Counted from the stretch's first letter, positions 4,077-33,572 are shown. The stretch is DNA of 36,275 nt from Pseudomonadota bacterium (GCA_030596145.1 JAUVKS010000001.1:1-36275), one strand, 5' to 3'. Translations and numbers: made by a program. Notes: generated from the sequence alone by a model not told the origin.

Positions 4077-4147
4077 CTTTCCTGCCTCCCTTTCCTGCAC
4101 ACAAAAATAAAGCAATTTGTATGCCAAAAGAGCTAAGAGCGTGGAGC

Positions 4148-4640: not shown

Positions 4641-4649
4641 AAAAACACC

Positions 4650-4910
4650 GTAACCGTTCAGAGGTTCAGACTTGCCTGCGGCAGGCAGAGGTTCAAGGTT
4701 CAGAGGTTCAGGATAAAGCTATTAGACATTAGCCATTAGCTCTTAGTCCGCCAGAGCCCTTTGGCGGATTAACTGTTTGATTTTTTAAGCTAAAGGCTAA
4801 TTGCTAAAAGCTAACTGCTAACAATCTTTGATTTGAAAATATTGGTGCATAGCAGTTAGCCCTGCGCTCCAAGAAAAACAACCCTGAACCTCTGAACCCT
4901 GAACGGTTAC
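4650..4910. repeat. ~260-nt nested multi-arm palindrome filling the spacer between the FliK-like and FlhB-C-like genes
   Basis: Outer arms are gtaaccgttcagaggttcag (4650-4669) and ctgaacctctgaaccctgaacggttac (4884-4910). Middle arms are ATTAGC-type and GCTAA-type arrays. Inner palindromes are tgcctgcggcaggca (4673-4687) and tccgcca-N8-tggcgga (4747-4768). Confidence 0.9.
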
Positions 4911-4918
4911 CCTTTATT

Positions 4919-6013
4919 TCACGCCAAAATATCCACGCCCTCCAGGGAAAACAGGTTTTGAACGTCGCGATATTCATCCTTTATTTTTAAATCATCCTTC
5001 TCTGTCACACACGTTAAATAATCTATGTCATATCCTAAAGCCGTGAGCTTTTCTCCAAGTTCTTCTAAAAACAATCTAATAAAATTACATATATTTTCAT
5101 CCTTACATTTCAATACACAGCTTATTTTTTTAGCCTTGATTTTCGCTTCAACAGTAATGTTGCCCAGGGCATCCATATCCAGCAGAAACAGAACTTTCTT
5201 CTCTTCCCGGCGGCCTTTGCCCTTTGAATCCCGATCTCCAAATTTCACAAATATCTCCGCCAGACCCATATTCTCCGGAAACAGCAGAGGAACCTGGAAC
5301 ATATATTTACCCTCATATTCCTGAAACAAATAATTTATCACCTGATGAGAGTTAATTATTTGCAAAGAGGAACGGACAAATCCGGCAAGTTTTTCCGCTG
5401 CGGGAAAATTTCTATTTTCCATCAACGACTGAAGCCTGCCGGACATCCTTATCAAGAGTTCCTTCAGGTTTTTAGAGGGATTCTTTACCTTCTCCATCAA
5501 GTAACCGAATTTGTGGACATAATCTCTAAAGAAGAAAGGTTTTTTTAAACTTTCCCTGGAAAATATCAACGATTCTAATATATTTTGTATATTCTTGACA
5601 TCTTCCTTTCCGAGATGCGCTGCAAGCTTCCCTAAATTTTCAGGACTGAACCTGCCTGTCCCTTCTATGAAAAACTCAAAAAGAGCTTTCGGGTTTGAAC
5701 GGTAAAATCTCAAACAATACATTAACCTGGAATTTTGCGATATTTCATTATGAACAATACGAAGGATAACACCGGGATGCAACTGTTCCACCTTTACCGC
5801 AACCTTTTCGCCTTTCTTAAGCGGCAGCTCGGAATCTGCCATAACTCTGCTGTTTTTCAGCAAAATCAGCGTTTTCCCGTAACGAGTGGTTTCCATGATT
5901 TCCGCTTCCACCACTTCGCCAACGGAAAGAGGAGGCAAAAATGCCGCTTTTTTTTGAATTTGCAACAGGTAATTTAGTTTATGGGATGCTATTGTGGGAG
6001 GAAGAATTTTCAT
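4919..6013 (-). CDS. Hypothetical protein with a FliK-like (Flg_hook-type) C-terminal region
   Basis: 364 aa. LFLLDMDALGNITVEAKIKAKKISCVLKCKDENICNFIRLFLEELGEKLTALGYDIDYLTCV parallels this window's FliK segment ITLNPPRLGTLDVDVLVRDNKVHVILQTENNDVRQILQSNVESLKSSLRNHGLVADTINV. The resemblance was judged by eye only. Confidence 0.5.
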   Translation of the reverse strand: MKILPPTIASHKLNYLLQIQKKAAFLPPLSVGEVVEAEIMETTRYGKTLILLKNSRVMADSELPLKKGEKVAVKVEQLHPGVILRIVHNEISQNSRLMYCLRFYRSNPKALFEFFIEGTGRFSPENLGKLAAHLGKEDVKNIQNILESLIFSRESLKKPFFFRDYVHKFGYLMEKVKNPSKNLKELLIRMSGRLQSLMENRNFPAAEKLAGFVRSSLQIINSHQVINYLFQEYEGKYMFQVPLLFPENMGLAEIFVKFGDRDSKGKGRREEKKVLFLLDMDALGNITVEAKIKAKKISCVLKCKDENICNFIRLFLEELGEKLTALGYDIDYLTCVTEKDDLKIKDEYRDVQNLFSLEGVDILA

Positions 6014-6912: not shown

Positions 6913-6940
6913 TTATCGTCACAATCTATTATAATCTTTA
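6913..6940 (-). promoter_or_regulatory. Sigma-28 (FliA) promoter candidate
   Basis: Minus strand reads TAAAGATT-N12-GACGATAA against consensus TAAAGTTT-N11-GCCGATAA (7/8 and 7/8, spacer +1). About 115 nt upstream of ORF 6496-6798. Confidence 0.4.
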
Positions 6941-6946
6941 GCCGTT

Positions 6947-7045
6947 CGCTTAATTGCGAATTTAGGGATTTAGGGATTTAGGAATTAAAGGTATTCTGTT
7001 GATTTCAATCCCTCAATCCCTCAATCCCCCAATTCCTTAATCCCT
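6947..7045. repeat. Family E hairpin (GGATTTAG array / CCTCAATC array); right arm contains the stop of ORF 7037-7819
   Basis: gcttaattgcgaatttagggatttagggatttaggaatt ... caatccctcaatccctcaatcccccaattcc. The left arm is ~90% identical to the reverse complement of 26838-26871. Confidence 0.9.
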
Positions 7046-7889: not shown

Positions 7890-8393
7890 TTACAATAAAA
7901 CAAACTTAGTAAAATATATTTTTTTAATTATCTCATCATCCAACAAATTATTCAAGCTAATTTTAATTTCTTCTTTTAACCCCCTCCTGATTTCAGGCAA
8001 CTCCGAAGGATGAAAATCCCCCCTTACCCCCCTTTGGTAAAGGGGGGATGGGGGGATTTTTAAAAGCTCTTTCAATGTGTTATATATGATCTTTCTCAAC
8101 TCGATCCTCTTTTGCGGCAGTTTCATCCCTCGATTCAGTTCAATAACCACATCACAAATCAGAAACCTGTCCTTTTTATTATCATCTTTCAAATGAATAA
8201 TGAAGTCATTAAAATATTCAAACCTTTCTTCTGTAGAAAGAGTCTCTTGCGAACTTACTTCACAGAGCTCCTGACTCCTGACCTCCGACCCCGCCAGACT
8301 GACGGGGGGCAAGCTCTGACCTCCGATCTCTGGTCCTTGCCCCCTGACAGACCCGTTGCCTGCAAACAACGCAATGCACAGGCATACGGCCAT
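7890..8393 (-). CDS. FliL-like paralogue carrying two repeat-derived in-frame insertions
   Basis: C-terminus FLICDVVIELNRG...LKEEIKISLNNLLDDEIIKKIYFTKFVLL parallels FliL in this window (...RDEIAVRLNSYLTKGQVRRVYFTEFLIQ). Start chosen at ATG 8393 (MAVCLCIALFAG). The ORF-track start at 8447 adds an unrelated 18-aa fragment. Confidence 0.5.
   Translation of the reverse strand: MAVCLCIALFAGNGSVRGQGPEIGGQSLPPVSLAGSEVRSQELCEVSSQETLSTEERFEYFNDFIIHLKDDNKKDRFLICDVVIELNRGMKLPQKRIELRKIIYNTLKELLKIPPSPLYQRGVRGDFHPSELPEIRRGLKEEIKISLNNLLDDEIIKKIYFTKFVLL
8013..8060. repeat. 48-nt G/C-tract palindrome inserted in frame in the FliL-like CDS
   Basis: aaaatccccccttacccccctttggtaaaggggggatggggggatttt. A ~21-bp stem with one bulge; 16 codons (IPPSPLYQRGVRGDF). 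Confidence 0.9.
8280..8336. repeat. Dispersed GACCTCC/CCGCC-hairpin element inside the FliL-like CDS (copy of 26415-26500)
   Basis: gacctccgaccccgccagactgacggggggcaagctctgacctcc compared with 26415-26459: 43/45 identical. Confidence 0.9.
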
Positions 8394-8470
8394 CAAAACT
8401 CTGTATGCACAACCAATGATTTTCTCAGTCAATTCTCTGTGTTTCACTTATATGCCTTCATGAACTTATG

Positions 8471-10456: not shown

Positions 10457-10604
10457 GGATTCAGAAGATTAGAAGGTTAGAAGGTAAGAGCTCCATAACC
10501 TTCTCACCTTCTGCTCTTCTAACCTTCTGCTCTTTTAACCCTCTCAACTTCTAACCTTCTAACCTTCTAACCTTCTAACCTTCTAACCTTCTAACCTTCT
10601 AACC
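10457..10604. repeat. Family C hairpin ending in 7 perfect TTCTAACC units (10549-10604)
   Basis: The left arm ggattcagaagattagaaggttagaaggtaagag pairs with AACCTTCT-type units. The 7x perfect octamer array contains the flhF stop codon (TAG, 10591-10593). Confidence 0.95.
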
Positions 10605-11826
10605 TCCCGCCGACTATCAGCCTTGCAAGTTTTGCAGGATCCATTTTATTTAAATCATGTGGAACATTCTGACCATCGGCAATGTAGAACACCGGTTTGC
10701 CGACATGGTCAATAACATTATAAATCGAGCCGAATTTTTTTGAATCATCCAGCTTCGTAAATATAATGTTGTTATAATTTACAATACCAAATCTCGCCAC
10801 AGCATCCATCATGCTCTCCTGACTTGATGTCATGCTTAAAACAAGATTCGTTTCCAGTGGAAGACCCATCGTAAAATATTCCTTTAATTTCGATAAATAA
10901 ACTTCATCACCACGACTCTTTCCAGGCGTATCTATCAGTATGATATCTTTATCGGCAAACTTATTCAAAGCTCTCTCTAATGCCTTCTTTTCAGAAGCAA
11001 CTTCCATGGGGACATCCATGATATCCGCGTATCTTTTCAGTTGTTCCACCGCGCCTATCCGATATGTATCCATTGTTATGATACCTACATTTAATTTATC
11101 TTCGAATAAACAGCGTGCCGCCAGCTTTGCCAGGGTTGTTGTTTTCCCATCACCCGTGGGGCCCACAAAGAGAGAAATCCTCTTTTTCCCCGTATTCCCG
11201 CCAGTATTTCTATAAGAAGAAGCAATAGATCCTTTTATAATGTTCTCAACAGCAGCCAGAGTATAATGATGGTTCTCCGGATCTTCCATCGAGCTATCGT
11301 TCTTCAACTCCTCTATTAATGCGCAGGCACGTTGTTTTGATACGCCTACCGAAATCAGGTGATAATAAACCTTTGACAGAGAAGAAGAAACTCTTCCATT
11401 ATTTTGAATGCCAAGAACATCAAATAAAAGACCCATTGTCTCCTTTATCTCAGTCAGCTCGGCATAAATGCCCCCTTGCTTTTTGAAATCCATAATAAAG
11501 GACTTCAACTCATTAACATCCGATCTAATTATGGAGAATGTATCTGATTCCTCTTTTTCGCATTTTTGAAGCTCCCCGCAGCTTGCTGCGGGGAAGCTTC
11601 GACCGTAAGGAAGTTTGCTATTTTCAGATTCGCTCGTTTTTGCTCGCTTTTGCGGTTCAACTTTACTTTCTTTTAGAATTTCATAATTATCATCCCTGGC
11701 AGCAATCACCTCAATCCTGCCATTCAGCCTTCTGCTGGAAAGCACTATGGCGTCCGGGCCCATATCCGCCTTTATCTTCTGCATAGCCTCGCTTATACTC
11801 AAGGCATCATATCTTTTAATCTGCAT
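10591..11826 (-). CDS. flhF: SRP-type GTPase FlhF
   Basis: N-terminus MQIKRYDALSISEAMQKIKADMGPDAIVLS; G1 GPTGDGKTTT; DTPG. Overlaps the flhA end by 11 nt. The stop codon lies inside the TTCTAACC tandem array. Confidence 0.9.
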   Translation of the reverse strand: MQIKRYDALSISEAMQKIKADMGPDAIVLSSRRLNGRIEVIAARDDNYEILKESKVEPQKRAKTSESENSKLPYGRSFPAASCGELQKCEKEESDTFSIIRSDVNELKSFIMDFKKQGGIYAELTEIKETMGLLFDVLGIQNNGRVSSSLSKVYYHLISVGVSKQRACALIEELKNDSSMEDPENHHYTLAAVENIIKGSIASSYRNTGGNTGKKRISLFVGPTGDGKTTTLAKLAARCLFEDKLNVGIITMDTYRIGAVEQLKRYADIMDVPMEVASEKKALERALNKFADKDIILIDTPGKSRGDEVYLSKLKEYFTMGLPLETNLVLSMTSSQESMMDAVARFGIVNYNNIIFTKLDDSKKFGSIYNVIDHVGKPVFYIADGQNVPHDLNKMDPAKLARLIVGGRLEG

Positions 11827-13900
11827 CTTTTGCCGCCAGCATACCCAGAGATTTGATATTTACATCACTAATGATTTCGTTGTGGGAAAGAACAGCGATA
11901 TTGGGAAAAAACTTTTCCAGTATCTTGCTTAAATATCCCCTGATATTGGGCGAGCAGAGAATAACCGGCGGCAAGCCTTTGTCGCTAAAAATTTTGATAA
12001 ACTTCTTGAGGTTGCCTACAACCTCTTGTATCAGAGTGGGGTCAGCCGCAACAAATGATTCATATTCCGTATGCTGAACCGATTTATTAATTCTGTCCTC
12101 AATATCAGGAGAAACCATAATAACTGTTATGTTCCCATCCGCGTCCTTATATTCCTTTGTTATCATCCTGGCCAGCGCCTGTCTTACATACCCGGTTAAC
12201 GTGTCAACATTTTTTGTCAGAGGCGCATAATCGGCTAATGTTTCCAGTATCGTAAGAAGATCGCGAATAGAAATTCTCTCCTTCAAAAGCCTCTGCAGTA
12301 CTTTCTGAAGCATGCCGAGCGGAACGATATTTGGAATAAGCTCCTCTATAACTTTGGGATGGCTCACTGCCAGACTATCCAGCAAAGACTGAACATCCTG
12401 CCTGCCCAACAGTTCATCTGCATGCGTTTTTATAATTTCAGTCAAATGGGTCGTAATAACGGCTGCCGGATCAACAACAACAAAACCCTTTGCTTGAACC
12501 GATTCTTTTTCTTTTTCATCTATCCAGACCGCAGGCAGGCCGAAAGCAGGTTCCTTTGCCTCAATTCCCGTTATCTTTGCGCCTTCATTTCCAGCAGTTA
12601 TTGCCAGATAATGACCCATCTGTATTTCTCCCTTAGCTATCTCAACTCCTTTCAGTTTAACAACATATTCACCGGGCTTTACCTGCAGATTGTCTCTTAT
12701 ATGTATGGCAGGCGTGACAAAGCCCATTTCAACGGCTATCTGCCTTTTCAGCGCCTTGATTCTCTCAAGCAATTCACCGCCCTCTCCTGCATCAACGAGG
12801 GGCACCAGGCTGTATCCTATCTCAAGTTCAAGGGCATCAAGGGGCAGGAGAGCTTCTATGGGCTCCTCCACCGGTTCCGGCGGCGGCTTCTCCTCCATAT
12901 CTTCAACTTTCTGTGATGATTTAAATGTCCTGTATGCAATAATTCCCGAAATAAGAGCAATGGCTAAAAAAGATATCTTGGGCATGCCGGGAATTAAACC
13001 AAATATCAACAGGATAACTGAAGCCGCTGCAATCACCTTTGGTTTGGCAAAGAGTTGTCCTCCTACTTCCTTACCCAAATCAGATGAGCCTGTAGACCTG
13101 GAGATAAGCATGCCTGCGGCAGTTGATACAATCAGCGCCGGAATCTGCGTTACCAGCCCATCACCCACTGTAAGAAGAGTATAGACGCGAGCGGCATCCG
13201 CTACCGACATACCCTGCTGCAGCACGCCGACAATCAAACCGCCCAAAATATTTATCGTGGCAATAATAATCCCCGCGATTGCATCCCCCCTGACGAACTT
13301 GCTCGCCCCGTCCATTGCGCCGTAAAAATTTGATTCCAGCTCAATTTCACGCCGCCTTCTTCTCGCCTCTGCATCTGTAATCAGCCCTGCATTAAGATCT
13401 GCGTCGATGCTCATCTGTTTTCCGGGCATCGCATCCAGGGTGAATCTTGCCGCCACTTCGGCTATTCTTGTGGCGCCCTTGGTTATCACAATAAAATTAA
13501 TAAGGACAAGCACCAGAAATACTATAAATCCAACCACATAATTGCCGCCGACAACAAAGGAGCCGAATGCCTTGATGACCTGCCCGGCCGCCCCCGGGCC
13601 CTCATTGCCATGGAGAAGTATAAGACGCGTGGAAGCTACATTAAGGGACAAACGAAGCAAAGTTATAATTAAAAGGATGGATGGAAAAACGGAAAAATCG
13701 ATAGGTTTTTGCACATAAACTGAAACCAGCAGTATAATCAGAGAAAAACTGATACTGAAAGAAAGGAGCATATCGAGAGCAAAGGGGTGCAGAGGTATCA
13801 TCATAACCAGAAGGATACCTGCTATCCCTATGGCCATCGCGGTATTGCCGCCTTTAAACAAATCGAAAAAATTGCCGGTTTTAACGTAAGGATCAGCCAT
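11816..13900 (-). CDS. flhA: Export gate protein FlhA
   Basis: 694 aa. N-terminal polytopic TM domain, then the conserved FVRGDAIAGIIIATINILGG block and a large cytoplasmic C-terminal domain. Confidence 0.95.
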   Translation of the reverse strand: MADPYVKTGNFFDLFKGGNTAMAIGIAGILLVMMIPLHPFALDMLLSFSISFSLIILLVSVYVQKPIDFSVFPSILLIITLLRLSLNVASTRLILLHGNEGPGAAGQVIKAFGSFVVGGNYVVGFIVFLVLVLINFIVITKGATRIAEVAARFTLDAMPGKQMSIDADLNAGLITDAEARRRRREIELESNFYGAMDGASKFVRGDAIAGIIIATINILGGLIVGVLQQGMSVADAARVYTLLTVGDGLVTQIPALIVSTAAGMLISRSTGSSDLGKEVGGQLFAKPKVIAAASVILLIFGLIPGMPKISFLAIALISGIIAYRTFKSSQKVEDMEEKPPPEPVEEPIEALLPLDALELEIGYSLVPLVDAGEGGELLERIKALKRQIAVEMGFVTPAIHIRDNLQVKPGEYVVKLKGVEIAKGEIQMGHYLAITAGNEGAKITGIEAKEPAFGLPAVWIDEKEKESVQAKGFVVVDPAAVITTHLTEIIKTHADELLGRQDVQSLLDSLAVSHPKVIEELIPNIVPLGMLQKVLQRLLKERISIRDLLTILETLADYAPLTKNVDTLTGYVRQALARMITKEYKDADGNITVIMVSPDIEDRINKSVQHTEYESFVAADPTLIQEVVGNLKKFIKIFSDKGLPPVILCSPNIRGYLSKILEKFFPNIAVLSHNEIISDVNIKSLGMLAAKDAD

Positions 13901-14140
13901 TGCTCGTTACTCGTTGCTGGTTACTGGTTGCTCGTTACTGGTTGCGAATTACTCGTTGCTGGTTGCTCGTTGCTCGTTCCGAAAAGGAAATAGGAAAGAG
14001 TTAAGAGAAAAGGGTGTTACTCTATTCTCTAATCCTCTGACCTTTTAATCTTCTGACCTTCTAACCTTCTAACCTCCGACCTCCGACCTCCGACCTCCTT
14101 ACTCGACCACTTGACTATTTCCCCACTCGACCATTCCCCT
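13901..14140. repeat. Composite spacer: family D heptamers, element J, family C (incl. GACCTCC x3), family A
   Basis: tgctcgttactcgttgctggttactggttgctcgttactggttgc..., then the J element, then ctgaccttctaaccttctaacctccgacctccgacctccgacctcc, then ttactcgaccacttgactatttccccactcgacc. Confidence 0.95.
13972..14030. repeat. Dispersed element J, copy 1 (59 nt, 57/59 identical to 29491-29549), upstream of flhA
   Basis: gctcgttccgaaaaggaaataggaaagagttaagagaaaagggtgttactctattctct. Confidence 0.95.
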
Positions 14141-16642: not shown

Positions 16643-17413
16643 TTAAGCAAAGCTTTGAACCAGCGAACCGATTATTAAATTCCACCCGTCAACCAGCACA
16701 AAAAGGAGTAGTTTGAACGGCAGGCTTATCATTATAGGCGGAAGCATCATCATTCCCATTGATAAAAGCACACTGGCAATGACCATATCCAGTATCAAAA
16801 AAGGGAGATAGATCATAAACCCGATTTGAAAAGCCGTCTTTAATTCACTGATTACAAAGGCGGGTATTAATACGGGAAGTTTGATCTCATCAGGTTTTTG
16901 GGGCCTTTCCCCCCTTGAAATTTTGACAAAGAGGGCAATATCTTTTTCTCCAGCCTGCTTTAACATAAATTCTTTTATGGGCTGCGCTGCCAGGTCAAAT
17001 GCTTTTTCAGCCGATATCTCTTCATTTATATACGGCTGCAACGCCTGAGAATTTACCTTATTCCAGACAGGGGTCATGATAAAAAAGGTCAGGAAGAGGG
17101 ATAATCCAATGATAATCTGGTTTGCAGGCATCTGCTGCGTACCCAGAGCATGCCTTAGAAGGGAAAGGACGACAACAATTCGAGTAAACGAAGTCAACAT
17201 TACAAGTATTGCGGGAGCAAGAGAAAGTATTGTAAAAAGAAACAACAGTTGCAGAACTACCGCTACCCTGCCTGGTTCATCACCGCCGTCCCCAGCATTC
17301 AAACTTATCGAGGGAATGGAAAATGATTGCCCCCACGAAGAGCCTGCAAAAAAAATGAGTCCAAAAACTACCAGGATGCATATAAGACATTTCCCGAATC
17401 TTGATGGTCTCAT
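16643..17413 (-). CDS. fliP: Export apparatus protein FliP
   Basis: Signal-like N-terminus, then SLAPAILVMLTSFTRIVVVLSLLRHALGTQQMPANQIIIGLSLFLTFFIMTPV. The ORF-track start at 17425 is TTG; ATG at 17413 preferred. Confidence 0.93.
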   Translation of the reverse strand: MRPSRFGKCLICILVVFGLIFFAGSSWGQSFSIPSISLNAGDGGDEPGRVAVVLQLLFLFTILSLAPAILVMLTSFTRIVVVLSLLRHALGTQQMPANQIIIGLSLFLTFFIMTPVWNKVNSQALQPYINEEISAEKAFDLAAQPIKEFMLKQAGEKDIALFVKISRGERPQKPDEIKLPVLIPAFVISELKTAFQIGFMIYLPFLILDMVIASVLLSMGMMMLPPIMISLPFKLLLFVLVDGWNLIIGSLVQSFA

Positions 17414-17484
17414 AAAAAGTGTCAATTTCAGACCTCGCTAAGTGGTTAAGTTTTGAAAGATGAACATAGAACATACTATTAAAA

Positions 17485-17526
17485 GATGAACGTCCAACAT
17501 CGAACATTGAACGTCGAACGTCGAAT
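17485..17526. repeat. Inverted partner of element I (CGAACG/CAACATCGAA motifs)
   Basis: gatgaacgtccaacatcgaacattgaacgtcgaacgtcgaat. 17489-17504 is the perfect reverse complement of 17636-17651. Confidence 0.9.
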
Positions 17527-17610
17527 AATGATGTCGCTCCGCTCCTCAAATTATGTTTGGTTCAGGGATATTTGGTTGCTGTTTTTACGACCTCCGACTT
17601 CTGGCCTCTG

Positions 17611-17707
17611 TTCCTTCATCTTTTCCCATTCAACATTCGATGTTGGACGTTCGATCTGGCTTCGCAAATGCTATGCCAAGACACGTGTTCGATGTTCATT
17701 TTTTTCA
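17611..17707. repeat. Dispersed element I, copy 1 (fliO-fliP spacer)
   Basis: ttccttcatcttttcccattcaacattcga[tgttggacgttcga]tctggcttcgcaaatgctatgccaagacacgtgttcgatgttcattttttt. Near-identical to 20341-20437 except for the position of a 14-nt module. Confidence 0.95.
17663..17678 (-). promoter_or_regulatory. Sigma-54 promoter candidate inside dispersed element I (copy 1), upstream of fliP
   Basis: Minus strand reads TGGCAT-AGCAT-TTGCG. Predicted +1 (~17652) coincides with one arm of a 16-bp perfect inverted repeat (17636-17651 / 17489-17504). Confidence 0.5.
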
Positions 17708-17711
17708 GGCC

Positions 17712-18068
17712 CTACTTCAACAGTCCCTTTAAATAACCGGAAAATGGAACACTTTTCCCTTTCTGTTCCTGAACTTCTTTCAGTTGTTCAAGAGATTCAG
17801 AATCCACAATTTCCGTCAACAGGGATATCTTGCTGCTTGAAACGCCGATCACCATAATATTGCCCAACACATCAATAAGCATTATACTGCTTTTGGCCCC
17901 CAGGTATTTAACAGACAAAGTCTTTATCAGTTCCCCGCCATTGATTACTCCTCCTCCCTTTTTCACGATTTTTTTAAACAGATACGCAACAACAATCATA
18001 ACGCCCACCGTAACGGCAAGAGCCGATATGATTTTCAAAAGAGAGTAAAATAATTCCGGTGAATTCAT
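17712..18068 (-). CDS. fliO: FliO-like small membrane protein
   Basis: 118 aa, single N-terminal TM segment (ISALAVTVGVMIVVAYLF). Sits between fliN and fliP. Confidence 0.7.
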   Translation of the reverse strand: MNSPELFYSLLKIISALAVTVGVMIVVAYLFKKIVKKGGGVINGGELIKTLSVKYLGAKSSIMLIDVLGNIMVIGVSSSKISLLTEIVDSESLEQLKEVQEQKGKSVPFSGYLKGLLK

Positions 18069-18084
18069 AGCGCTCCTCAGATAA

Positions 18085-18513
18085 CTACTTCAGCTTATCA
18101 ATCCTCTCGGCATGGGAGATAACATCCGTCAATCTGACCCCGAATTTCTCATTAACCACAACTACTTCACCCCTGGCAATCAATCGATTATTGACAAAGA
18201 CATCCATTGGTTCCCCTGCAAGCTTCGTTAACTCTACGACTGAACCCTGGCCTAACTGAAGAAGCTCGCTTATCAACATCCTTCCTCTGCCCAACTCAAC
18301 AGCCAGGGTAAGGGGTATGTCCAGAATAAAATCCATATCCAGCGACGCCTTCTTTGTTTCGCCTTTTTTCATTTCCTCGAACGTGACACTGTTTACTTCT
18401 TTTTTTTCAGCCGGCTTAGCAGATGCCTTCATCTCATCCTGGACATCGTCCCAGCCGATTTCTTCATCATTTTTTGTTTCTTTTACTTCTTCCGCCGACT
18501 CATTCTGTTCCAT
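18085..18513 (-). CDS. fliN: C-ring protein FliN
   Basis: SpoA domain LDIPLTLAVELGRGRMLISELLQLGQGSVVELTKLAGEPMDVFVNNRLIARGEVVVVNEKFGVRLTDV. ATG at 18513 is preceded by GAGGTG within the fliM end; the track start at 18537 is less likely. Confidence 0.92.
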   Translation of the reverse strand: MEQNESAEEVKETKNDEEIGWDDVQDEMKASAKPAEKKEVNSVTFEEMKKGETKKASLDMDFILDIPLTLAVELGRGRMLISELLQLGQGSVVELTKLAGEPMDVFVNNRLIARGEVVVVNEKFGVRLTDVISHAERIDKLK

Positions 18514-18514
18514 A

Positions 18515-19501
18515 TCAATACACCTCTTTCCCAACAATAAATTTTGATATTTCTACCGCCCGGTTGCCTTTATAAATTCCTGGCTGCCCCTTAAACTTAA
18601 GGACATCTTCCACATAAATATCCAGACTACTGCTGCAATATTGATCCAGGGGGATCACATCCCCCTTTTTCAGGTTTATAATTTCTCTACCACTCAGCTT
18701 TGTTCTGCCCAGCTCGACAGTCAGGTTCACTTTTGAACATCTAAGACCCTCCTTAAACCTGTACGCCCACTCTTTATCAACCTCCAGCCTATCCGCCTGA
18801 TAAGTTCCCTGCAATTTTTCCCTGATCGGCTCTATTGTCAAATAAGGTATGCAGAAAGTCATTATGCCCGAAGAAAATTCGAGGTCGATTTCAAATTGCG
18901 AAACAATCACGACATCGGTAGGCGCCACAATCTGCATAAACTGAGGATTGCTTTCCGATCTCTGATAGATAACATCAAGTTGTATAATTGCTTTCCACAC
19001 CTCTTTAAAATCAGACAGCACTTTCAACACAATCCTCTTTATTAGATTATTCTCTATGTTTGTAAAATCTCTTCCCTCAATTTTAAACCCCTCCCGCCCG
19101 GACCCTCCAAAAATAATATCAACCAGCGCAAATACCACTCGCGATTCAATGACAAGAAGTGAACTACCCTTTAATGGATCCATTTTAAAGGCATGGAGAC
19201 TCGCAGGTATGGGAATTGATTTTATAAATTCGCCATACTTGATCATGTCCACCGATAACGTATTTACATTAATAACTTTTCTTAACAATGATAAGAGGGT
19301 TGTCCTGAATATCCTGGCGAATTTTTCAGTTGTTATCTCCAGGGCAGGCATTCTCCCCCTAACGATTCTGTCCTGACCGGTTAAATCGTATTGCCGAACT
19401 GATGATGGATCATAAGTCTCCTCCTGTTCTGTCTCAATCTCACCATCCGATACCCCTGTTAAGAGTGCATCCACCTCTTCCTGTGATAATATCTGGGACA
19501 T
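18515..19501 (-). CDS. fliM: C-ring switch protein FliM
   Basis: N-terminal CheY-P-binding type motif SQILSQEEVDALL; 328 aa; C-terminal SpoA-like region; AAGGAG SD. Confidence 0.93.
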   Translation of the reverse strand: MSQILSQEEVDALLTGVSDGEIETEQEETYDPSSVRQYDLTGQDRIVRGRMPALEITTEKFARIFRTTLLSLLRKVINVNTLSVDMIKYGEFIKSIPIPASLHAFKMDPLKGSSLLVIESRVVFALVDIIFGGSGREGFKIEGRDFTNIENNLIKRIVLKVLSDFKEVWKAIIQLDVIYQRSESNPQFMQIVAPTDVVIVSQFEIDLEFSSGIMTFCIPYLTIEPIREKLQGTYQADRLEVDKEWAYRFKEGLRCSKVNLTVELGRTKLSGREIINLKKGDVIPLDQYCSSSLDIYVEDVLKFKGQPGIYKGNRAVEISKFIVGKEVY

Positions 19502-19517
19502 CTAAGTTGTCTCCTTA

Positions 19518-19611
19518 AAGGTTCAATGTTCAAGGTTCAGGGTTCAGGGTTCAGGGTTCAGGGTTCAGGGTTCAGTTTAACCTTGAACCTTGAACCTTTG
19601 AACCGTGAACG
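19518..19611. repeat. Family B hairpin (GGTTCAGG x5 facing an AACCTTG array), fliL-fliM spacer
   Basis: aaaggttcaatgttcaaggttcagggttcagggttcagggttcagggttcagggttcag ttt aaccttgaaccttgaacctttgaaccgtgaacg. Confidence 0.95.
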
Positions 19612-19612
19612 C

Positions 19613-20104
19613 TTACTGTATAAGAAATTCGGTAAAGTAAACCCTTCTGACCTGACCTTTAGTAAGATAGCTATTTAGACGCACAGCAATCTCGTCTCTG
19701 AGACGCTGTTTTCCCTCAAAGCCTGCTATCTCTTTATAGCTTTTTGATGAAAGGAGGCCTAAAATGCTGTCCGTAATTTTTGGCTTTAAAAGGTCCATCT
19801 CCGATATACAATCCTGATTAGATACTTCGATCTGAATCGTAGATTTTAAGTACCTTTCGCCGTTAGCATCCATTAAATTTACGATCAGGCTGCCCATGGA
19901 CCAGATGCCCGATTTTTGAACAATCTGTTCGCTGACTGCTTTTTCTGAACCGGAAGTGTGAGTCTTATAATACGTCCACCCCGCAAAACCTGCGGCCCCT
20001 AAAATCACTACACCAAAAAACACTACAATCCATTTAATGATTGATTTCTTGCCTTTTCCGGGTTCTTTTTCTTTAGATTCCTCTTCCTTTTCTTCTTTAA
20101 CCAT
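19613..20104 (-). CDS. fliL: Basal-body-associated protein FliL
   Basis: 163 aa. Lys/Glu-rich N-terminus, one TM segment, FliL core (LIVNLMDANGERYLKSTIQIEV...RVYFTEFLIQ). Confidence 0.88.
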   Translation of the reverse strand: MVKEEKEEESKEKEPGKGKKSIIKWIVVFFGVVILGAAGFAGWTYYKTHTSGSEKAVSEQIVQKSGIWSMGSLIVNLMDANGERYLKSTIQIEVSNQDCISEMDLLKPKITDSILGLLSSKSYKEIAGFEGKQRLRDEIAVRLNSYLTKGQVRRVYFTEFLIQ

Positions 20105-20126
20105 TACCGCTCCCTCCTCTTGATAT

Positions 20127-20336
20127 TGGTCGAGTGGTCAAGTAGTCAAGTAGTCGAGTGGTCATTGCGAGAAGTCCGCCGCAGGCGGATGGATTATCAA
20201 CATGTTTTGAGATTGCTTCGCTTCGCTCGCAATGACAATGCTGGGGTTTTTCAAATGTCTCGAATAACCAATCATCCATTTCCCCACTCGACCACTCAAC
20301 CATTTTCCTACTCGACTACTTCCCCACTCGACTATT
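20127..20336. repeat. Composite palindromic element: family A array, GTCATTGCGAG...CTCGCAATGAC palindrome, family A' array
   Basis: Forward A units at 20127-20163. An 11-bp perfect inverted repeat at 20161-20171 / 20225-20235 encloses tccgccgcaggcgga. Reverse A units at 20277-20336. Confidence 0.9.
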
Positions 20337-20340
20337 TCTG

Positions 20341-20437
20341 TTTCTTCATGTTTTCCCATTCAACATTCGATCTGGCTTCGCAAATGCTATGCCAAGACAC
20401 GTGTTGGACGTTCGGTGTTCGATGTTCATTTTTTTAA
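20341..20437. repeat. Dispersed element I, copy 2 (motB-fliL spacer; overlaps the motB stop)
   Basis: tttcttcatgttttcccattcaacattcgatctggcttcgcaaatgctatgccaagacacgtgt[tggacgttcggtgt]tcgatgttcattttttt. Confidence 0.95.
20379..20394 (-). promoter_or_regulatory. Sigma-54 promoter candidate inside dispersed element I (copy 2), upstream of fliL
   Basis: Minus strand reads TGGCAT-AGCAT-TTGCG. Identical to the site at 17663-17678. Confidence 0.5.
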
Positions 20438-21121
20438 TGTTAGGATGACCTCCACCCTTCTGTTGATGTTCCTGTTATGATCGCTCACATTCGGGAAAAG
20501 GGGTCTTGAGTCCGCATAACCTGCCGCAGAAAGCCTTTCCTGGAAAATGCCTCCTTCGGAAATGAAATATTTGACAACATTTACGGCCCGGGCCACTGAA
20601 AGCTCCCAGTTTGAAGGAAATCGTCTGTTACTTATAGGGACATCATCTGTATGTCCTTCTATACTTATTTGACAAACAGTCTTTTTAAGAATAGGACACA
20701 GGCCTCTGAGGGCAGGATTATTTCTTTTTTCAATTTCGGCCATACCTGTCTTAAATAACAGTTTTTCTCCAATTGTAACGGAAATACCCTCTTTTATTAC
20801 CCTTGCGTCCATTATGCCTTCAGGGCCGCCGAGCGCTTTGTTTATACGCCTGGCCAATTTTCTCTTTTTATTCTCAAATATCATGGCCTTATTTATTATA
20901 GGAATAACAAAGGGGGTAAAAATACTCACATCCTCTTTTTTTAGTTTCGGCATATTAAATACAGCTCTTACAGCATAAGATACCGTTGTCAGTTTAGATT
21001 TATCCATTTCTGAAAGCGAAAGAACTAAAACCAGGAATGTAAGCAAGAGCGTCACCATATCATTGAAGGTTGTGAGCCATTTCCCTCCTTTATCTTCTGA
21101 ATTTTTACACTTATTATTCAT
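20426..21121 (-). CDS. motB: Stator protein MotB (canonical, with TM Asp)
   Basis: KWLTTFNDMVTLLLTFLVLVLS carries the conserved channel Asp. C-terminal OmpA-like domain (IEGHTDDVPISNRRFPSNWELSVARA...NRRVEV). The track start at 21139 is TTG; ATG at 21121 preferred. Confidence 0.85.
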   Translation of the reverse strand: MNNKCKNSEDKGGKWLTTFNDMVTLLLTFLVLVLSLSEMDKSKLTTVSYAVRAVFNMPKLKKEDVSIFTPFVIPIINKAMIFENKKRKLARRINKALGGPEGIMDARVIKEGISVTIGEKLLFKTGMAEIEKRNNPALRGLCPILKKTVCQISIEGHTDDVPISNRRFPSNWELSVARAVNVVKYFISEGGIFQERLSAAGYADSRPLFPNVSDHNRNINRRVEVILTLKK

Positions 21122-21141
21122 CCAGTGCCCCAGGATCAATT

Positions 21142-21834
21142 CTATAATTCAAAATAAAATTCAACTCTCCGGTTTTCCCGTCTGCCTTCAGAAACATCAT
21201 TTGACGCGACCGGATGATATTGGCTGAACCCGACTGCGGCCAGCCTATCCGCTGAAAGTTCTCCTTTCTCAAGGAGATACCGCAGGATATTGACCGCCCG
21301 GGTAGTCGAAAGTTCCCAGTTCGACGGGAACTCGGAAGTAGCTATCGGAACATTATCGGTATGACCTTCCACCCTTACAGAGAAAGGGTTATTTCGCGCT
21401 ATCTTTATCATCTCATCAAGACACGGATATGCCTCTTTATTTATTTCAGCTACTCCTGATGGAAACAATACATTGCTTCCAAAAATAACTATAAACCCTT
21501 TCTCGATTTTTTTTATGTTGACCGATTCGTTTAGACCTGCCTTTCTGAGATATTTCCATAGGGATTTGATGGCCGGTTCGGCAAATTCACCTTGATCTTC
21601 CGAAATATCCTTCGAGAGTTTCAGTATATTATTGCCTTTATCAAGCTTACGATCTTCAGTGATCGACTCCTCCCTTTGTTGAAAGTTAGCTATTTTATCT
21701 TCTTTGATGGTTGAATAGGACACAAGCATGGCAAAAAGAGCCACTATAATCAGCACGAGAGAACAGTATATCATCTCCCAGCCTGCAGCCGGGGTCTCTT
21801 TTTTCTCGTTGCTCTTTCTTGATTCCTCTTCCAT
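21142..21834 (-). CDS. MotB-like OmpA-domain protein lacking the canonical TM Asp
   Basis: TM region GWEMIYCSLVLIIVALFAMLV has Ser where MotB has Asp. OmpA-like C-terminus (VEGHTDNVPIATSEFPSNWELSTTRA...NRRVEF). The track start at 21858 (TTG) lies in a repeat; ATG at 21834 preferred. Confidence 0.7.
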   Translation of the reverse strand: MEEESRKSNEKKETPAAGWEMIYCSLVLIIVALFAMLVSYSTIKEDKIANFQQREESITEDRKLDKGNNILKLSKDISEDQGEFAEPAIKSLWKYLRKAGLNESVNIKKIEKGFIVIFGSNVLFPSGVAEINKEAYPCLDEMIKIARNNPFSVRVEGHTDNVPIATSEFPSNWELSTTRAVNILRYLLEKGELSADRLAAVGFSQYHPVASNDVSEGRRENRRVEFYFEL

Positions 21835-21838
21835 ATTT

Positions 21839-21966
21839 AGCTTCGCTTCGCTTCGCAAGTGGTCAAGTGGTTGAGTGGTCGAGTAGTTAAATAGTCGAGT
21901 CGTCGAGTGGGGAAATAGTCGAATGGGAATTAGTCAACCACTCGACCACTTGACCACTCGACTAAA
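21839..21966. repeat. GCTTCGC triplet plus a family A hairpin (motA / motB-like spacer)
   Basis: gcttcgcttcgcttcgc, then agtggtcaagtggttgagtggtcgagtagttaaatagtcgagtcgtcgagtgg ... tagtcaaccactcgaccacttgaccactcgac. Confidence 0.9.
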
Positions 21967-22754: not shown

Positions 22755-22770
22755 AGCAAAGAATGTGCCA
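22755..22770 (-). promoter_or_regulatory. Sigma-54 promoter candidate abutting the motA start
   Basis: Minus strand reads TGGCAC-ATTCT-TTGCT, a perfect match to core consensus. The predicted +1 (~22744) would leave only ~6 nt before the motA ATG at 22738. Confidence 0.45.
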
Positions 22771-23072
22771 GAAGGATTGGGGGTTAGAGTGTGAGAAGGT
22801 TAGAAGGGAAGAGGGTGAGAAGGTAGGAAGGTAAGAGGGTAGGAAGAGCAGAAGGGAAGAGGGTGATAGGATTAGGGGATTAGAAGGTTAGAGGGGAAGA
22901 GGGTGAGAAGTTTTGTTTTTGAGTTCTTTACTAACCTTCTAACCTTCTGATCTTCTAACTTTCTGTTTTTGACGGGTCGTCAGAAATTTGACACATAACT
23001 ACTCAGATTGTCAGGTTCACAGTTCTCTAACCTTGAACCTTGAACCGTGAACCCTTGAACCGTGAACCTAAG
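22771..23072. repeat. Long purine-rich family C' tract (~145 nt), short C arm, then family B' units (flgE-motA spacer)
   Basis: gaaggattgggggttagagtgtgagaaggttagaagggaagagggtgagaaggtaggaagg... facing taaccttctaaccttctgatcttctaac. Then aaccttgaaccttgaaccgtgaacccttgaaccgtgaacc. Confidence 0.9.
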
Positions 23073-23078
23073 TAATAT

Positions 23079-24335
23079 TTATCTCTTGATGTTCATCAGC
23101 TCGGACATCATCTGATCGGTGGTTGTGATGACTTTGGCATTGGCCTGGTACGCCCTTTGGGCAGTGATCATATTGATAAATTCCGTGGCGATATCGGCGT
23201 TCGACATCTCAAGAGAGTTGGGGCTGATCTCACCCAATCCGCCTCTTCCAGGTGCGTTTATGACCGCGGCGCCCGAATTTATCGTGGTGGCGAACAGATT
23301 GGACCCCATTTTATTCAATCCCCCGGGACTCGCAAACTTTGCCAGGGCAATCTGTCCTATTTCCGCAGTCTGCCCATTTGAGAACAAACCCTGGATGATC
23401 CCATCGCCTCCTATTGACAGACCCTGCAACTCGCCCGAGGCATGACCATTACAGACAAGACTCCTGTTGACCGAGGGACTGGCATAACCTGTCATTGTCT
23501 CGGCAGGCTCATCGGTATCGGTTACAGCGTCCTTCAGATCCCAGTTGATTGTACCGGAATCACCGATGCCGATGGTGGCGTCACCCGGCAAGAGGCCTGT
23601 GACGGTAATATCTATATCGGTTGTAGCAGGATCAAGTTTTCCATCTCCATCAAAACCAATGATGGCTGGATCTAAGGCTATTGTGGCAGTGCCCAGGTCC
23701 GACATGTCAACCGCTATAGACCATTCACCAACAGATGGAAGTGGTGCTTTCGTAAAGGTCAACGTAAGCGTATGCCCGGCCCCTAACGAATCATAGACAG
23801 TTAGCGCGGAAACAAAGGTATCACCCTTAGCAGCCTCCCCATTGAGATTTGCGCCTATGGAAACTCTGGTTGTAGCTATCGGATCTGACTGAACGCCGCC
23901 CATAGAGATGTCTCCGATCACATTTGTAGAAACGCCGTTCTCATAAGTATATCCCTGAACTCTGTAACCATTTACATCCACGAGATACTCGGTCTTATCC
24001 ACAGTGAACATACCTGCTCTGGTATAATAGGTGGCGCCTTCAGTATCGTTAACCATAAAAAATCCTTCTCCATTTATTGCAAGATCAGTGGCGCTCTGCG
24101 TACTCATAAATGAACCCTGCCCAAAAAGAGTGGGAACCGCAGTCACCCCTACACCGCGTCCTATCTGCATTGCTCCAGAACCTCCGGCAATGCTCTGGCT
24201 TAAGATATCGCCAAAAACCATGGTTCCTGCCTTAAAACCAACAGTATTGATATTGGCTATATTATTGCCTATGACATCCATCTGTTGTGAACTGGCATTT
24301 AAGCCTGATACTCCCGAAAATAATGAGCTTCCCAT
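23079..24335 (-). CDS. flgE: Hook protein FlgE
   Basis: MGSSLFSGVSGLNASSQQMDVIGNNIANINTVGFK...LEMSNADIATEFINMITAQRAYQANAKVI; 418 aa; AAGGAGG SD. Confidence 0.93.
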   Translation of the reverse strand: MGSSLFSGVSGLNASSQQMDVIGNNIANINTVGFKAGTMVFGDILSQSIAGGSGAMQIGRGVGVTAVPTLFGQGSFMSTQSATDLAINGEGFFMVNDTEGATYYTRAGMFTVDKTEYLVDVNGYRVQGYTYENGVSTNVIGDISMGGVQSDPIATTRVSIGANLNGEAAKGDTFVSALTVYDSLGAGHTLTLTFTKAPLPSVGEWSIAVDMSDLGTATIALDPAIIGFDGDGKLDPATTDIDITVTGLLPGDATIGIGDSGTINWDLKDAVTDTDEPAETMTGYASPSVNRSLVCNGHASGELQGLSIGGDGIIQGLFSNGQTAEIGQIALAKFASPGGLNKMGSNLFATTINSGAAVINAPGRGGLGEISPNSLEMSNADIATEFINMITAQRAYQANAKVITTTDQMMSELMNIKR

Positions 24336-25281: not shown

Positions 25282-26715
25282 TTACGCAAACAAACTGACA
25301 CGCCCGTCACTCCGGACGCTTGGGTTTTCTTCCTTAAACGATGAGGGGTCATGATTCAAGGAATCTTGTTCCCCCCCATGGTCTTCTTCGTTCCCTTCCC
25401 GATTTCTGCCTTCTCTAAATAATGTCTCATTCCGCCCGGAGCCGTAATTGCCGCCGTCCGGTTTTTCCTGAACAGATACATTTATGGTATCCGCGACCAA
25501 TCCATGATTGCGAAGAGAGCTTTTGAGACTTTCCACATTTGACTGTAATATCTGCCTGACATCATTATTTTCCGTCTGCAGGATAACATGCACTTTATTA
25601 TCCCTGACAAGCACATCCACATCCAGCGTGCCCAGACGGGGCGGGTTGAGCGTGATTCTTACCCTTCCTGGCTTCTTTACGCTGTTTGCAATCTGATTGA
25701 TCAAAGCCCGTGGTTCTACGTCGTAACTGTTCACGCTCTCATTGATGACTGCCGACCCGCTATCTGCATGAAAAGCGGTATGCTGATATCCCCCGGCAGA
25801 AAAATCCCTGTAAGATGGACGCTCCGGTGGTGAAGTCCCTCTATGAAGAATCCCCATAGCCTCTTCACCCTTAAGAGCCAAAGGTTTCAGTGAATTTCCG
25901 ATGCCATTTTTGCCGCCGCTGTCCGGCTCTACACTGCTCTTTGCTTTTACAACAACCGCATTCTTCAAACTGAACTTCAAAAGCCCCTGTTTCTCCTCCA
26001 TCTTTGCCTTCCGGCCATTGCCTTCTGTCCTATGGCCCCCGCCAGACTGACGGCGGTCAGGTCTGAGCAGGGCGTTGTTTATTCCGGCAATGTTCTTTCC
26101 ATTCTTAAAGAGAGCTGCATCGGTCTTTCCATTCATGATACCTGAGTCTAACGCCCGTTTCCCGAACGGGCCGATGAGGGCATCGGCCCCTACACGTACC
26201 TGAGCCTCATTCTTTCCGACAACCGCTTTAGCTTCACCCTTAAGAGCCAAAGGTTTCAGTGAATTTCCGATGCCATTTTTGCCGCCGCTGTCCGGCTCTA
26301 CACTGCTCTTTGCTTTTACAACAACCGCATTCTTCAAACTGAACTTCAAAAGTCCCGGAGCATCCACCATCTCTGCCCTCCCACCGGGGCGTAGGCCCCT
26401 ATGGGCCGGAGGCTGACCTCCGACCCCGCCAGACTGACGGCGGGCAAGCTCTGACCTCTGACCTCTGACCTCCGACCTCTGACCTCCGACCTCTGGTCCC
26501 CGGCCTTTCACAGGTAGCGATTGATTCGTTTTTTCCGTCTCTTGTGTCGTTATGCGGCATATCTGCCCCATCATACAAAAAAACGGCATCATCTGCTCCG
26601 GTTCCTTACCTGTCTGCCGTCGCACAGGCAGGCCGGTCTTCCTTTCCTGCAATTTTTCAGATGAGCCCAGAAGGCCGATGCCCTGTTTTAGATTCACCAG
26701 ATTAGACTCTATCAT
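25282..26715 (-). CDS. fliK: Hook-length control protein FliK (repeat-rich N-terminal/ruler half)
   Basis: C-terminal Flg_hook-type domain (RVRITLNPPRLGTLDVDVLVRDNKVHVILQTENNDVRQILQSNVESLKSSLRNHGL). Sits between ylxF-like and flgD. The N-terminal start is uncertain. Confidence 0.8.
   Translation of the reverse strand: MIESNLVNLKQGIGLLGSSEKLQERKTGLPVRRQTGKEPEQMMPFFCMMGQICRITTQETEKTNQSLPVKGRGPEVGGQRSEVRGQRSELARRQSGGVGGQPPAHRGLRPGGRAEMVDAPGLLKFSLKNAVVVKAKSSVEPDSGGKNGIGNSLKPLALKGEAKAVVGKNEAQVRVGADALIGPFGKRALDSGIMNGKTDAALFKNGKNIAGINNALLRPDRRQSGGGHRTEGNGRKAKMEEKQGLLKFSLKNAVVVKAKSSVEPDSGGKNGIGNSLKPLALKGEEAMGILHRGTSPPERPSYRDFSAGGYQHTAFHADSGSAVINESVNSYDVEPRALINQIANSVKKPGRVRITLNPPRLGTLDVDVLVRDNKVHVILQTENNDVRQILQSNVESLKSSLRNHGLVADTINVSVQEKPDGGNYGSGRNETLFREGRNREGNEEDHGGEQDSLNHDPSSFKEENPSVRSDGRVSLFA
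25863..25983. repeat. 121-bp perfect direct repeat inside fliK, copy 1
   Basis: cttcacccttaagagccaaaggtttcagtgaatttccgatgcc...caaactgaacttcaaaag is identical to 26232-26352. The offset is 369 nt, i.e. 123 codons. Confidence 0.95.
26232..26352. repeat. 121-bp perfect direct repeat inside fliK, copy 2
   Basis: Base-for-base identical to 25863-25983. Encodes GLLKFSLKNAVVVKAKSSVEPDSGGKNGIGNSLKPLALKGE twice. Confidence 0.95.
26415..26500. repeat. Dispersed GACCTCC/CCGCC-hairpin element with an expanded GACCTCT heptamer run, inside fliK
   Basis: gacctccgaccccgccagactgacggcgggcaagctctgacctctgacctctgacctccgacctctgacctccgacctctggtcc. A partial third copy lies at 26036-26068. Confidence 0.9.
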
Positions 26716-26918: not shown

Positions 26919-26934
26919 AGCAAAAGACGTACCA
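26919..26934 (-). promoter_or_regulatory. Sigma-54 promoter candidate upstream of fliK
   Basis: Minus strand reads TGGTAC-GTCTT-TTGCT. About 200 nt upstream of the fliK ATG, with the nested hairpin 26755-26887 in the predicted leader. Confidence 0.5.
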
Positions 26935-33460: not shown

Positions 33461-33572
33461 TAGTCAAGTGGTCGAGTAGTTGAGTGGTCGAGTGGTTAAC
33501 TACTCGACTACTCGACCATTTCCCTACTCGACCATTTCCCTACTCGACTATTTCCCTACTCGACTATTTCCC
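33461..33572. repeat. Family A hairpin (flgC-fliE spacer); contains the flgC stop
   Basis: tagtcaagtggtcgagtagttgagtggtcgagtggttaac tactcgactactcgaccatttccctactcgaccatttccctactcgactatttccctactcgac. Confidence 0.95.

Follow-up and report, generated by a model that had tools for sequence, protein, structure and literature searches.

The 36,275-nucleotide (nt) stretch of DNA analysed here, hereafter the window, is a complete contig of a metagenome-assembled genome (MAG) from a marine sulfate-reducer relative, and it holds a single flagellar cluster whose genes all lie on the minus strand. The cluster opens with an activator gene, flgB, flgC, fliE, fliF-G-H-I-J, fliK, flgD and flgE, continues with motA, two motB-like genes, fliL, fliM, fliN, fliO, fliP, fliQ, fliR, flhB and flhA, and closes with flhF, flhG and fliA followed by rod and ring genes. 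Two junctions of the middle block, fliO-fliP and motB-fliL, are occupied by near-identical repeat units (copy 1 and copy 2), each containing a 31-nt cassette that resembles a σ54 promoter. We conclude with high confidence that this feature is a repeat-borne, highly conserved σ54-like cassette residing in heptamer arrays, that it is dispersed in marine Desulfobacterales, and that it was recently acquired at two junctions of a once-compact operon.

Anatomy of the two repeat units

An earlier note on this DNA described a 97-base-pair (bp) element present twice and carrying a relocated 14-nt module. Both copies exist, and 94 of their 97 bases match when the 14-mer is allowed to move; near-identical duplicates of this length cannot be the product of chance. 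Read on the minus strand, the copies have in common AAAAAAATGAACATCGAAC, a 31-nt core and ATCGAATGTTGAATGGGAAAA(G/C)ATGAAG(G/A)AAC, and the 14-mer stands on the 3' side of the core in copy 1, as ATCGAACGTCCAAC, and on the 5' side in copy 2, as ACCGAACGTCCAAC. On either side the core is flanked by heptamers in tandem, which follow the pattern RTYSAAY (ATCGAAC, GTCCAAC, ACCGAAC, ATCGAAT and GTTGAAT). Copy 1 is composed of AAAAAAATGAAC, one heptamer, the cassette, four heptamers and the tail GGGAAAAGATGAAGGAAC, and copy 2 of ATGAAC, three heptamers, the cassette and two heptamers, so that the heptamer total is five in each with the cassette in a different slot. Since the cassette is nested at variable heptamer boundaries, the relocated module is simply two heptamers lying beyond the 31-nt insert in one copy and ahead of it in the other. 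The dispersed unit is thus not the 97-bp piece, as the earlier note had it, but the 31-nt cassette set at varying heptamer boundaries of an array unit.

The array unit itself consists of AAAA(G/A)ATGAAC, three to six tandem RTYSAAY heptamers and a short tail, and inverted pairs of such units, forming long hairpins, are frequent. An empty unit is inverted with respect to copy 1, and the two together span about 228 bp (17480-17707; Table 1) as one hairpin composite. No inverted unit of the same family accompanies copy 2, which overlaps the end of motB; the motB stop codon (20426-20428) is the TGA inside the AAAAAAATGAAC of this copy. Within both cassettes, and on the coding strand as the earlier note had stated, lies TTGGCAT-AGCAT-TTGCG, with the GG and GC 10 nt apart and nine of nine bases matching TGGCA and TTGC. 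The two motifs stand in spacers, 239 nt 5' of the fliP start codon and 276 nt 5' of that of fliL.

Several other identities were considered for the unit and set aside. The frame ATGAAC...TGA, which is 29 codons long in both copies, does not encode a conserved peptide, because the 14-nt shift places the cassette in different frames. The heptamers are reminiscent of T-loops, and ARAGORN gave no hit for a tRNA-derived element. Rfam yielded no matches at gathering thresholds over the whole window, and when positions 17380-20480 were screened at E<=1 the sole hits were spurious ones to miRNAs, on a GGTTCAG array.

Table 1. Coordinates of the repeat units, promoter-like sites and relevant genes in the window.
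Feature	Position	Strand	Description
Copy 1	17611-17707	-	Array unit with cassette; fliO-fliP spacer (286 nt)
Cassette of copy 1	17656-17686	-	ACGTGTCTTGGCATAGCATTTGCGAAGCCAG; motif TGGCATAGCATTTGC at 17664-17678; predicted +1 near 17652
Empty array unit	17480-17545	+	No cassette; TAAAAGATGAAC, 5 heptamers, AATGATGTCGCTCCGCTCC; same family
Terminator-like hairpin	17489-17522	-	13 pairs, then T run CATCTTTTAA; 64 nt 5' of fliP start
fliP	16643-17425	-	Gene 3' of copy 1; predicted leader ~227 nt
Copy 2	20341-20437	-	Array unit with cassette; motB-fliL spacer (321 nt)
Cassette of copy 2	20372-20402	-	Motif at 20380-20394; predicted +1 near 20368
fliL	19613-20104	-	Gene 3' of copy 2; predicted leader ~264 nt
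Native motA σ54 promoter	22755-22770	-	TGGCACATTCTTTGCT; kept in L032, L034 and L035
Activator-site-like palindrome	22965-22995	-	TGTCAAATTTCTGACGACCCGTCAAAAAC; 5' of motA, conserved in relatives
Second native-looking σ54 promoter	4111-4126	-	TGGCATACAAATTGCT; rod gene 3', 35-nt leader, ribosome-binding site
σ54 activator gene	34591-35937	-	Receiver, σ54 AAA+ and HTH_8 domains; cluster head

The cassette family

The cassette is dispersed, as had been proposed. An exact 25-mer of the core occurs at 12 loci in seven species-level MAGs (assigned to Desulfobacteraceae, Desulfobacterales or Thermodesulfobacteriota), with at most three loci per MAG (JAYENE01, CBDAFK01, JAUWOH01, JAPVVG01, JAUWLP01, DAOWEJ01 and JAFDFT01), and a second scan, anchored on the cassette edges with the 17 central bases free, added 15 metagenome contigs. 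Across their 31 nt the 29 cassette copies recovered from the seven MAGs and several metagenomes reach an identity of 93.5% or more, a figure to be read with the fact that both collection scans needed exact anchors and so under-sampled diverged copies; 9 of the 15 copies from the free-centre scan are identical to the window cassette. A local duplication of an ordinary promoter within the flagellar cluster, with no dispersed family behind it, would fit the presence of only two cassettes in the 36-kb window and their 94/97 identity, but it is refuted by the exact 25- to 31-mers that stand beside unrelated genes in the seven MAGs and 15 contigs, and we consider it barely conceivable. Conservation extends to all 31 nt and not only to the roughly ten that σ54 uses, suggesting either a further constraint on the cassette or recent spread.

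Judged by its sequence contexts, the cassette is a module separate from the carrier array unit. It lies between heptamers in the same relative orientation in all 14 copies that were found without a constraint on the flanks; empty units are common in the loci that hold cassettes; and in the homologous composites of loci L013 and L023 the cassette occupies opposite arms. Short-word BLAST of all loci for diverged copies gave one sister cassette, 76% identical over 25 nt, and no intermediates. This sister, at about 6918-6948 (+) of L006, is also 31 nt long (CCTTGTCGCGGCGTAACCTTAGCGAAGCTGG) and retains GG-N10-GC. Two further loci, L019 and L028, have other hairpin cassettes (TCCGCCAAAGCGCTCTGGCGGA and ...CCGCCGAAGCGGCTGCGAAGGCCGGG) in the same arrays, just 5' of their own copies, and a GCGAAG motif is common to several of the small cassettes in heptamer arrays. 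The separable cassettes, the empty units and the presence of other cassettes in the arrays together give the family a mosaic structure that is loosely like that of bacterial interspersed mosaic elements (BIMEs).

On its own the cassette has no terminal inverted repeat, no palindromic core and no significant hairpin on either strand; the single-stranded DNA folds of the two strands (z -0.4 and +0.6) are no better than those of shuffled sequence, and a palindrome of the repetitive extragenic palindromic (REP) type was rejected on these grounds. Some loci do have the carrier units paired in inverted orientation (copy 1, L004, L010/L020, L013, L017/L023 and L021). The junctions read ...AAC, cassette, ATCGAA..., with an ambiguity of 1 nt (A) and no target-site duplication. 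No transposase, whether a REP-associated tyrosine transposase (RAYT), an IS200/IS605 enzyme or another, is encoded in the window; no genome-wide search was made. The cassette has no exact matches in viral contigs, and a phage origin was set aside on this count.

The genes that flank the cassette elsewhere, where they could be called as heuristic longest open reading frames (ORFs), with confirmation in part by Pfam, are unrelated to one another; their products include a methyltransferase, Fic, Usp, DUF4160, an MFS transporter, an HD-domain protein, an ABC substrate-binding protein, XseA, CheR/CheA, RadC, DUF362, a σ54 activator and a small heat-shock protein. Functional coherence among these neighbours was looked for and rejected, adjacency to activator genes (L005, L018) or che genes (L004, L025) being within chance. 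The family is therefore not a flagellar device, its neighbours elsewhere being unrelated to flagella. At one locus (L014, in MAG063) the unit with the cassette extends over the beginning of an ORF at 4184-4651 that matches only positions 29-125 of an epimerase profile; a further epimerase fragment lies at 4750-5124, and the repeat may have disrupted the gene.

History of the two flagellar junctions

Comparison of the window with related contigs (Table 2) bears out the earlier claim that this block is normally polycistronic, the block being compact in relatives: in L035 fliO runs 4 nt into fliP, and 11 nt separate motB from fliL. Taken together, the motA-to-flhA spacers amount to 277 nt in L035 as against 1464 nt in the window, and L035 (1-12987) contains no 7/8-nt arrays. 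A contig from the Joint Genome Institute (JGI) that bears P0011 (77% FliM identity) has the same compact layout, known from its gene table alone, with no DNA. The compact relatives and the conserved motA promoter together indicate that the ancestral state was one σ54-driven operon running from motA to flhA. We strongly infer that the two cassettes were gained late, in the course of the repeat invasion: tandem 7/8-nt arrays would have invaded nearly every junction of the ancestral, compact, motA-driven operon, and cassette-bearing units would have been inserted after fliO and after motB.

Table 2. The motB-fliL and fliO-fliP junctions in the window and related contigs (percentages are FliM identity to the window).
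Contig	motB-fliL	fliO-fliP
L035 (78%)	11 nt	-4 nt (overlap)
L034 (80%)	-8 nt (overlap)	295 nt, other repeats, no σ54 motif
L032 (90%)	~45 nt	Contig end at start of ATCGAAC unit, equivalent position
L031 (93%)	109 nt	311 nt, other repeats, no σ54 motif
L001 (identical)	191 nt	Cassette present
L002 (identical)	290 nt	Cassette present
Window	321 nt	286 nt, cassette present

Two contigs otherwise identical to the window differ from it at the motB-fliL site. The L002 allele has five uninterrupted heptamers, is missing exactly 31 nt (with a 1-nt ambiguity) and is otherwise the same as the window, and in L001 the whole unit is missing. These contigs and a third, L038, all from JGI metagenomes, are 100% identical to the window, yet they contain seven further deletions in unique, mostly coding sequence. 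The deletions measure 27-173 nt, affect flgE, fliM, fliO, the start of fliP and the end of motB, and have no microhomology at their ends (window positions 23177-23269, 20308-20480, 17890-18002, 17413-17503, 17410-17440 and ~19248-19274). They may be assembly artefacts or real defective variants, and the value of the three contigs as a clean insertion polymorphism is weakened accordingly. The cassette-less allele of L002 appears more credible than the other deletions, because it is precise to the heptamer and is accompanied by six substitutions in the adjacent octamer array. Looking up the exact FliP protein for more contigs of the strain returned no record.

The arrays are a property of the whole cluster. 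About 80 tandem 7/8-nt arrays are present in the 36 kb, at nearly every gene junction, and are built from units such as GTCGAGTA, TCTAACCT, GGTTCAG, GTTGCTC and CTCTGAC, among others; examples lie at 10496-10605, 13900-13978, 19520-19575, 22786-22866 and 33499-33572, often as inverted pairs that yield hairpins. The motB-fliL spacer also holds a 76-nt element (20161-20236), similar to miniature inverted-repeat transposable elements, in which GTCATTGCGAG...CTCGCAATGAC surround a TCCGCCGCAGGCGGA hairpin; it sits within inverted GTCGAGTGG octamer arrays and is shared with L001, L002 and L038. Other peculiarities of the cluster are the adjoining motB-like (OmpA-domain) genes at 21142-21858 and 20426-21139, the MotB plug being confined to the second, and a 176-nt direct repeat within fliK (25282-26715), whose two members (25863-26038 and 26232-26407) are 88% identical and 369 nt apart. 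Paralogue-like extras at 4299-4640, 4919-6013 and 7890-8447 correspond to an FlhB C-terminal domain alone, a weak FliK-like gene and a weak FliL-like gene.

Possible function and significance of the cassette

Promoters of the σ54 type are silent until an activator ATPase remodels the closed complex, and current thinking couples them tightly to specific regulators. The window offers native examples for comparison. The motA promoter has the conserved form CTGGCACAnTCTTTGCTTT in L032 (~111), L034 (~3110) and L035 (~3276), and it stands only about 13-21 nt 5' of the ATG, so that its transcript would be nearly leaderless. The palindrome upstream of it, TGTCA-N6-TGACG-N4-GTCAAAAA, is conserved in the same three contigs; in the window, octamer arrays of about 200 nt are inserted between palindrome and promoter. 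The rod-gene promoter is a textbook site and has the same TTGGCAT form as the cassettes. Sites with one mismatch occur at 34466-34481 (-; TGGTATAAGTATTGCA), about 100 nt 5' of flgB, and at 26919-26934 (-; TGGTACGTCTTTTGCT), about 200 nt 5' of fliK, and the cluster may have several native σ54 promoters. The sequence TGGCA-N6-TTGC occurs four times in the window, always on the minus strand, against 0.42 expected, and with one mismatch to TGGCAYN5TTGCW allowed there are seven sites, all on the coding strand and the motA and rod-gene promoters among them. For a given 31-mer, the chance of TGGCA-N6-TTGC on either strand is about 1.3e-4. Neither the fliO-fliP nor the motB-fliL spacer contains a σ70-like promoter. 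The activator gene that the earlier note had placed in the cluster is there; rpoN is not on the 36,275-nt contig.

The transcripts predicted from the two motifs would have structured leaders. The perfect 16-bp inverted repeat reported earlier, in which 17636-17651 is exactly reverse-complementary to 17489-17504, lengthens to some 25 bp of stem (17628-17652 with 17491-17515) within the predicted fliP leader, which folds at -58.2 kcal/mol (z -2.08). The predicted fliL leader folds at -94.7 kcal/mol (z -5.9), with a long hairpin formed by the GTCGAGTGG arrays. The terminator-like hairpin in the fliP leader arises from a partly self-complementary heptamer array.

Whether the cassette is an activator-dependent internal promoter at the fliP and fliL junctions is a question on which our judgement is close to evenly divided, leaning slightly to doubt. 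Its plausibility derives from the quality of the motif, its likeness to the native promoters of the cluster, the coding-strand bias and the nearby activator gene. If it is one, σ54 RNA polymerase would probably dock on the cassette, an activator reaching it from solution or from a distance would trigger starts at the predicted +1 positions, and transcripts would read via the hairpin-rich leaders into fliP and fliL. As such promoters, the two cassettes would be recent, dispensable, opportunistic add-ons that stand outside the conserved regulatory design of the flagellum, and most cassette copies elsewhere in these genomes would probably be neutral.

A number of observations weigh against a promoter. 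The cassette site is not conserved at orthologous positions, being absent from the fliO-fliP spacers of L031 and L034 and having no spacer to occupy in L035. Measured against TGGCAC-N5-TTGCW, the cassette has T and not C at -21 and G and not A/T at -11, where all four native sites of the window have A or T. The GTCA-N6-TGAC palindrome is absent within 260 nt 5' of both copies, where the DNA is fliO or motB coding sequence, although other activators, or sites that escaped recognition, may exist. The terminator-like hairpin would have to be crossed by transcripts from the copy 1 motif on their way to fliP, and long hairpins dominate both predicted leaders. Genes downstream of the other copies share nothing with one another. 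Conservation covers the full 31 nt and with them the ACACGTGT palindrome and GAAGCCAG, neither of which σ54 needs. Among the 15 copies of the free-centre scan, a small sample, four of seven independent substitutions strike GG or GC (TTTACG twice, TTTGTG and TTGTCG), suggesting that individual copies are not under purifying selection for σ54 binding. As to orientation relative to downstream genes, which the earlier note had offered as a check, an excess of sense copies exists across the family (14 versus 5-6 antisense), but it is not significant (p 0.06-0.12) and equals what a gene co-directionality of about 70% would produce, the units merely following the upstream gene, whose stop codon they trail in about 18 cases versus 6 (~18/24) when it is co-oriented. 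In inverted-pair composites the cassette is antisense in three of the five informative cases (L004, L020/L010 and L023/L017).

Much of this is what would be expected of a mosaic repeat, selfish or neutral, that gene conversion among arrays or transposition in trans has spread and whose likeness to σ54 promoters is incidental or is the vestige of a promoter captured once; the cassette would be a silent hitchhiker, and transcription of the operon would still come from the motA promoter and pass through the repeats. We regard this account as plausible without thinking it probable. It is favoured by neighbours that are unrelated genome-wide, by the apparent presence or absence of the cassette among contigs that are otherwise 100% identical, by relatives that have the cassette at neither site, and by substitutions at least as frequent on GG/GC as on other positions. 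The lack of an orientation preference within composites and of an activator site near either copy, and the retention of the σ54-dispensable bases, argue in the same direction. Such an account leaves a nine-of-nine match, with a chance of the order of 1e-4 in a 31-mer, to coincidence or ancestry, and the cassette shares the form of native promoters in its own cluster; it also lacks the terminal inverted repeat, hairpin and target-site duplication of a transposon and is found on no viral contig. We think it decidedly improbable that the units serve chiefly as structural or RNA punctuation, with long hairpins in the polycistronic mRNA or in DNA that would mark processing or stability sites, terminate in part or insulate cistrons from one another, and with the cassette binding some other protein, for example at the ACACGTGT palindrome. 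Both leaders do fold into long stems (z -2.1 and -5.9), a hairpin is followed by a T run at 17522-17489, units tend to trail the stop codons of co-oriented genes and copy 2 even supplies that of motB, and paired hepta- and octamer arrays in Geobacter metallireducens have been proposed as sites for global regulators (IHF/HU; PMC2700814). Yet the cassette itself has no significant secondary structure, no Rfam family matches, copy 2 has no inverted partner of its family, and the σ54 consensus match is left unexplained.

A more specific version of the promoter proposal is that the 31-nt cassette is a site- and orientation-specific mobile promoter module, integrated at the AAC^ATCGAA heptamer boundaries of arrays already in place, by an enzyme or by templated gene conversion, and kept where arrays had broken the transcriptional continuity of the operon. 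We consider this unlikely.

Promoter-bearing dispersed repeats are known from the Correia elements of Neisseria. Near-identical promoter-bearing sequences 5' of non-homologous genes have also been described as putative mobile promoters (Nijveen, Matus-Garcia, van Passel; PMC3575422). The cassette is like these in being a short, near-identical intergenic promoter motif that occurs ahead of non-homologous genes within and across genomes. It is unlike them in being of the σ54 type, and so inert without an activator ATPase, whereas the known cases are of the σ70 type; it is, moreover, only 31 nt long, has no inverted ends and is always within a heptamer array, and its promoter role here is predicted. 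In enterobacteria, BIME and REP elements, and likewise REP doublets forming hairpins (REPINs), are mosaic intergenic modules that often lie just after stop codons and form hairpins. The population biology of REPINs has been treated elsewhere (PMC8049555). The cassette units resemble all of these in their mosaic of short modules after stops, their hairpins and what may be a variable presence between strains, and differ from BIME and REP elements in that the cassette has no palindrome and the carrier arms are tandem heptamers rather than one imperfect palindrome.

Paired hepta- and octanucleotide tandem arrays were described in G. metallireducens as 'multicopy nucleotide sequences' (PMC2700814), and heptamer direct repeats in Beggiatoaceae and cyanobacteria (PMC4679880). 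The arrays of the window are of the G. metallireducens type, being intergenic, with three to six tandem 7/8-mers, opposite-strand pairs at variable distance and many families, and the G. metallireducens units GTTGCTYN and MTYCTGA resemble some of them (PMC2700814). The Geobacter and Beggiatoaceae descriptions report neither a conserved non-repetitive cassette nor a σ54 motif. In Pseudomonas putida, internal σ54 promoters precede fliL, and a REP-filled fliH spacer has promoter activity (bioRxiv 10.1101/2021.08.29.457346). The cassettes share with this case a nested operon, a σ54 motif ahead of fliL and a repeat-expanded spacer that is near-absent in relatives. The Pseudomonas fliL promoter, however, is conserved across species and dependent on FleQ, whereas the window cassettes are lineage-specific, repeat-borne and absent from close relatives. 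The searchable literature contained neither the cassette nor the ATCGAAC and GTCCAAC heptamer strings, and σ54 combined with repeats gave indirect precedents only. Promoter-bearing repeats and heptamer arrays are thus already known; what is new, in that we did not find it in the searchable literature, is a σ54 motif on a 31-nt cassette held in fixed orientation at heptamer boundaries.

If the cassette does act as a mobile promoter module, it would be the smallest yet described, and a selfish repeat system would both damage and repair the expression of an operon by way of activator-gated σ54 promoters. A σ54 promoter on a dispersed repeat would challenge the view that such promoters are tightly wired to specific regulators, and would provide a natural system in which to ask how new σ54 promoters gain activators, and whether these act from solution or over kilobase distances. 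It would also become possible to ask whether holoenzyme that is bound yet inactive does anything in its own right. Should the cassette prove inactive, it would be an ordinary, if unusual, repeat family of uncultured Desulfobacterales. The growth of the intergenic sequence of a flagellar operon from 277 to 1464 nt is a clear case in which to examine how an operon tolerates, or compensates for, invasion by repeats.

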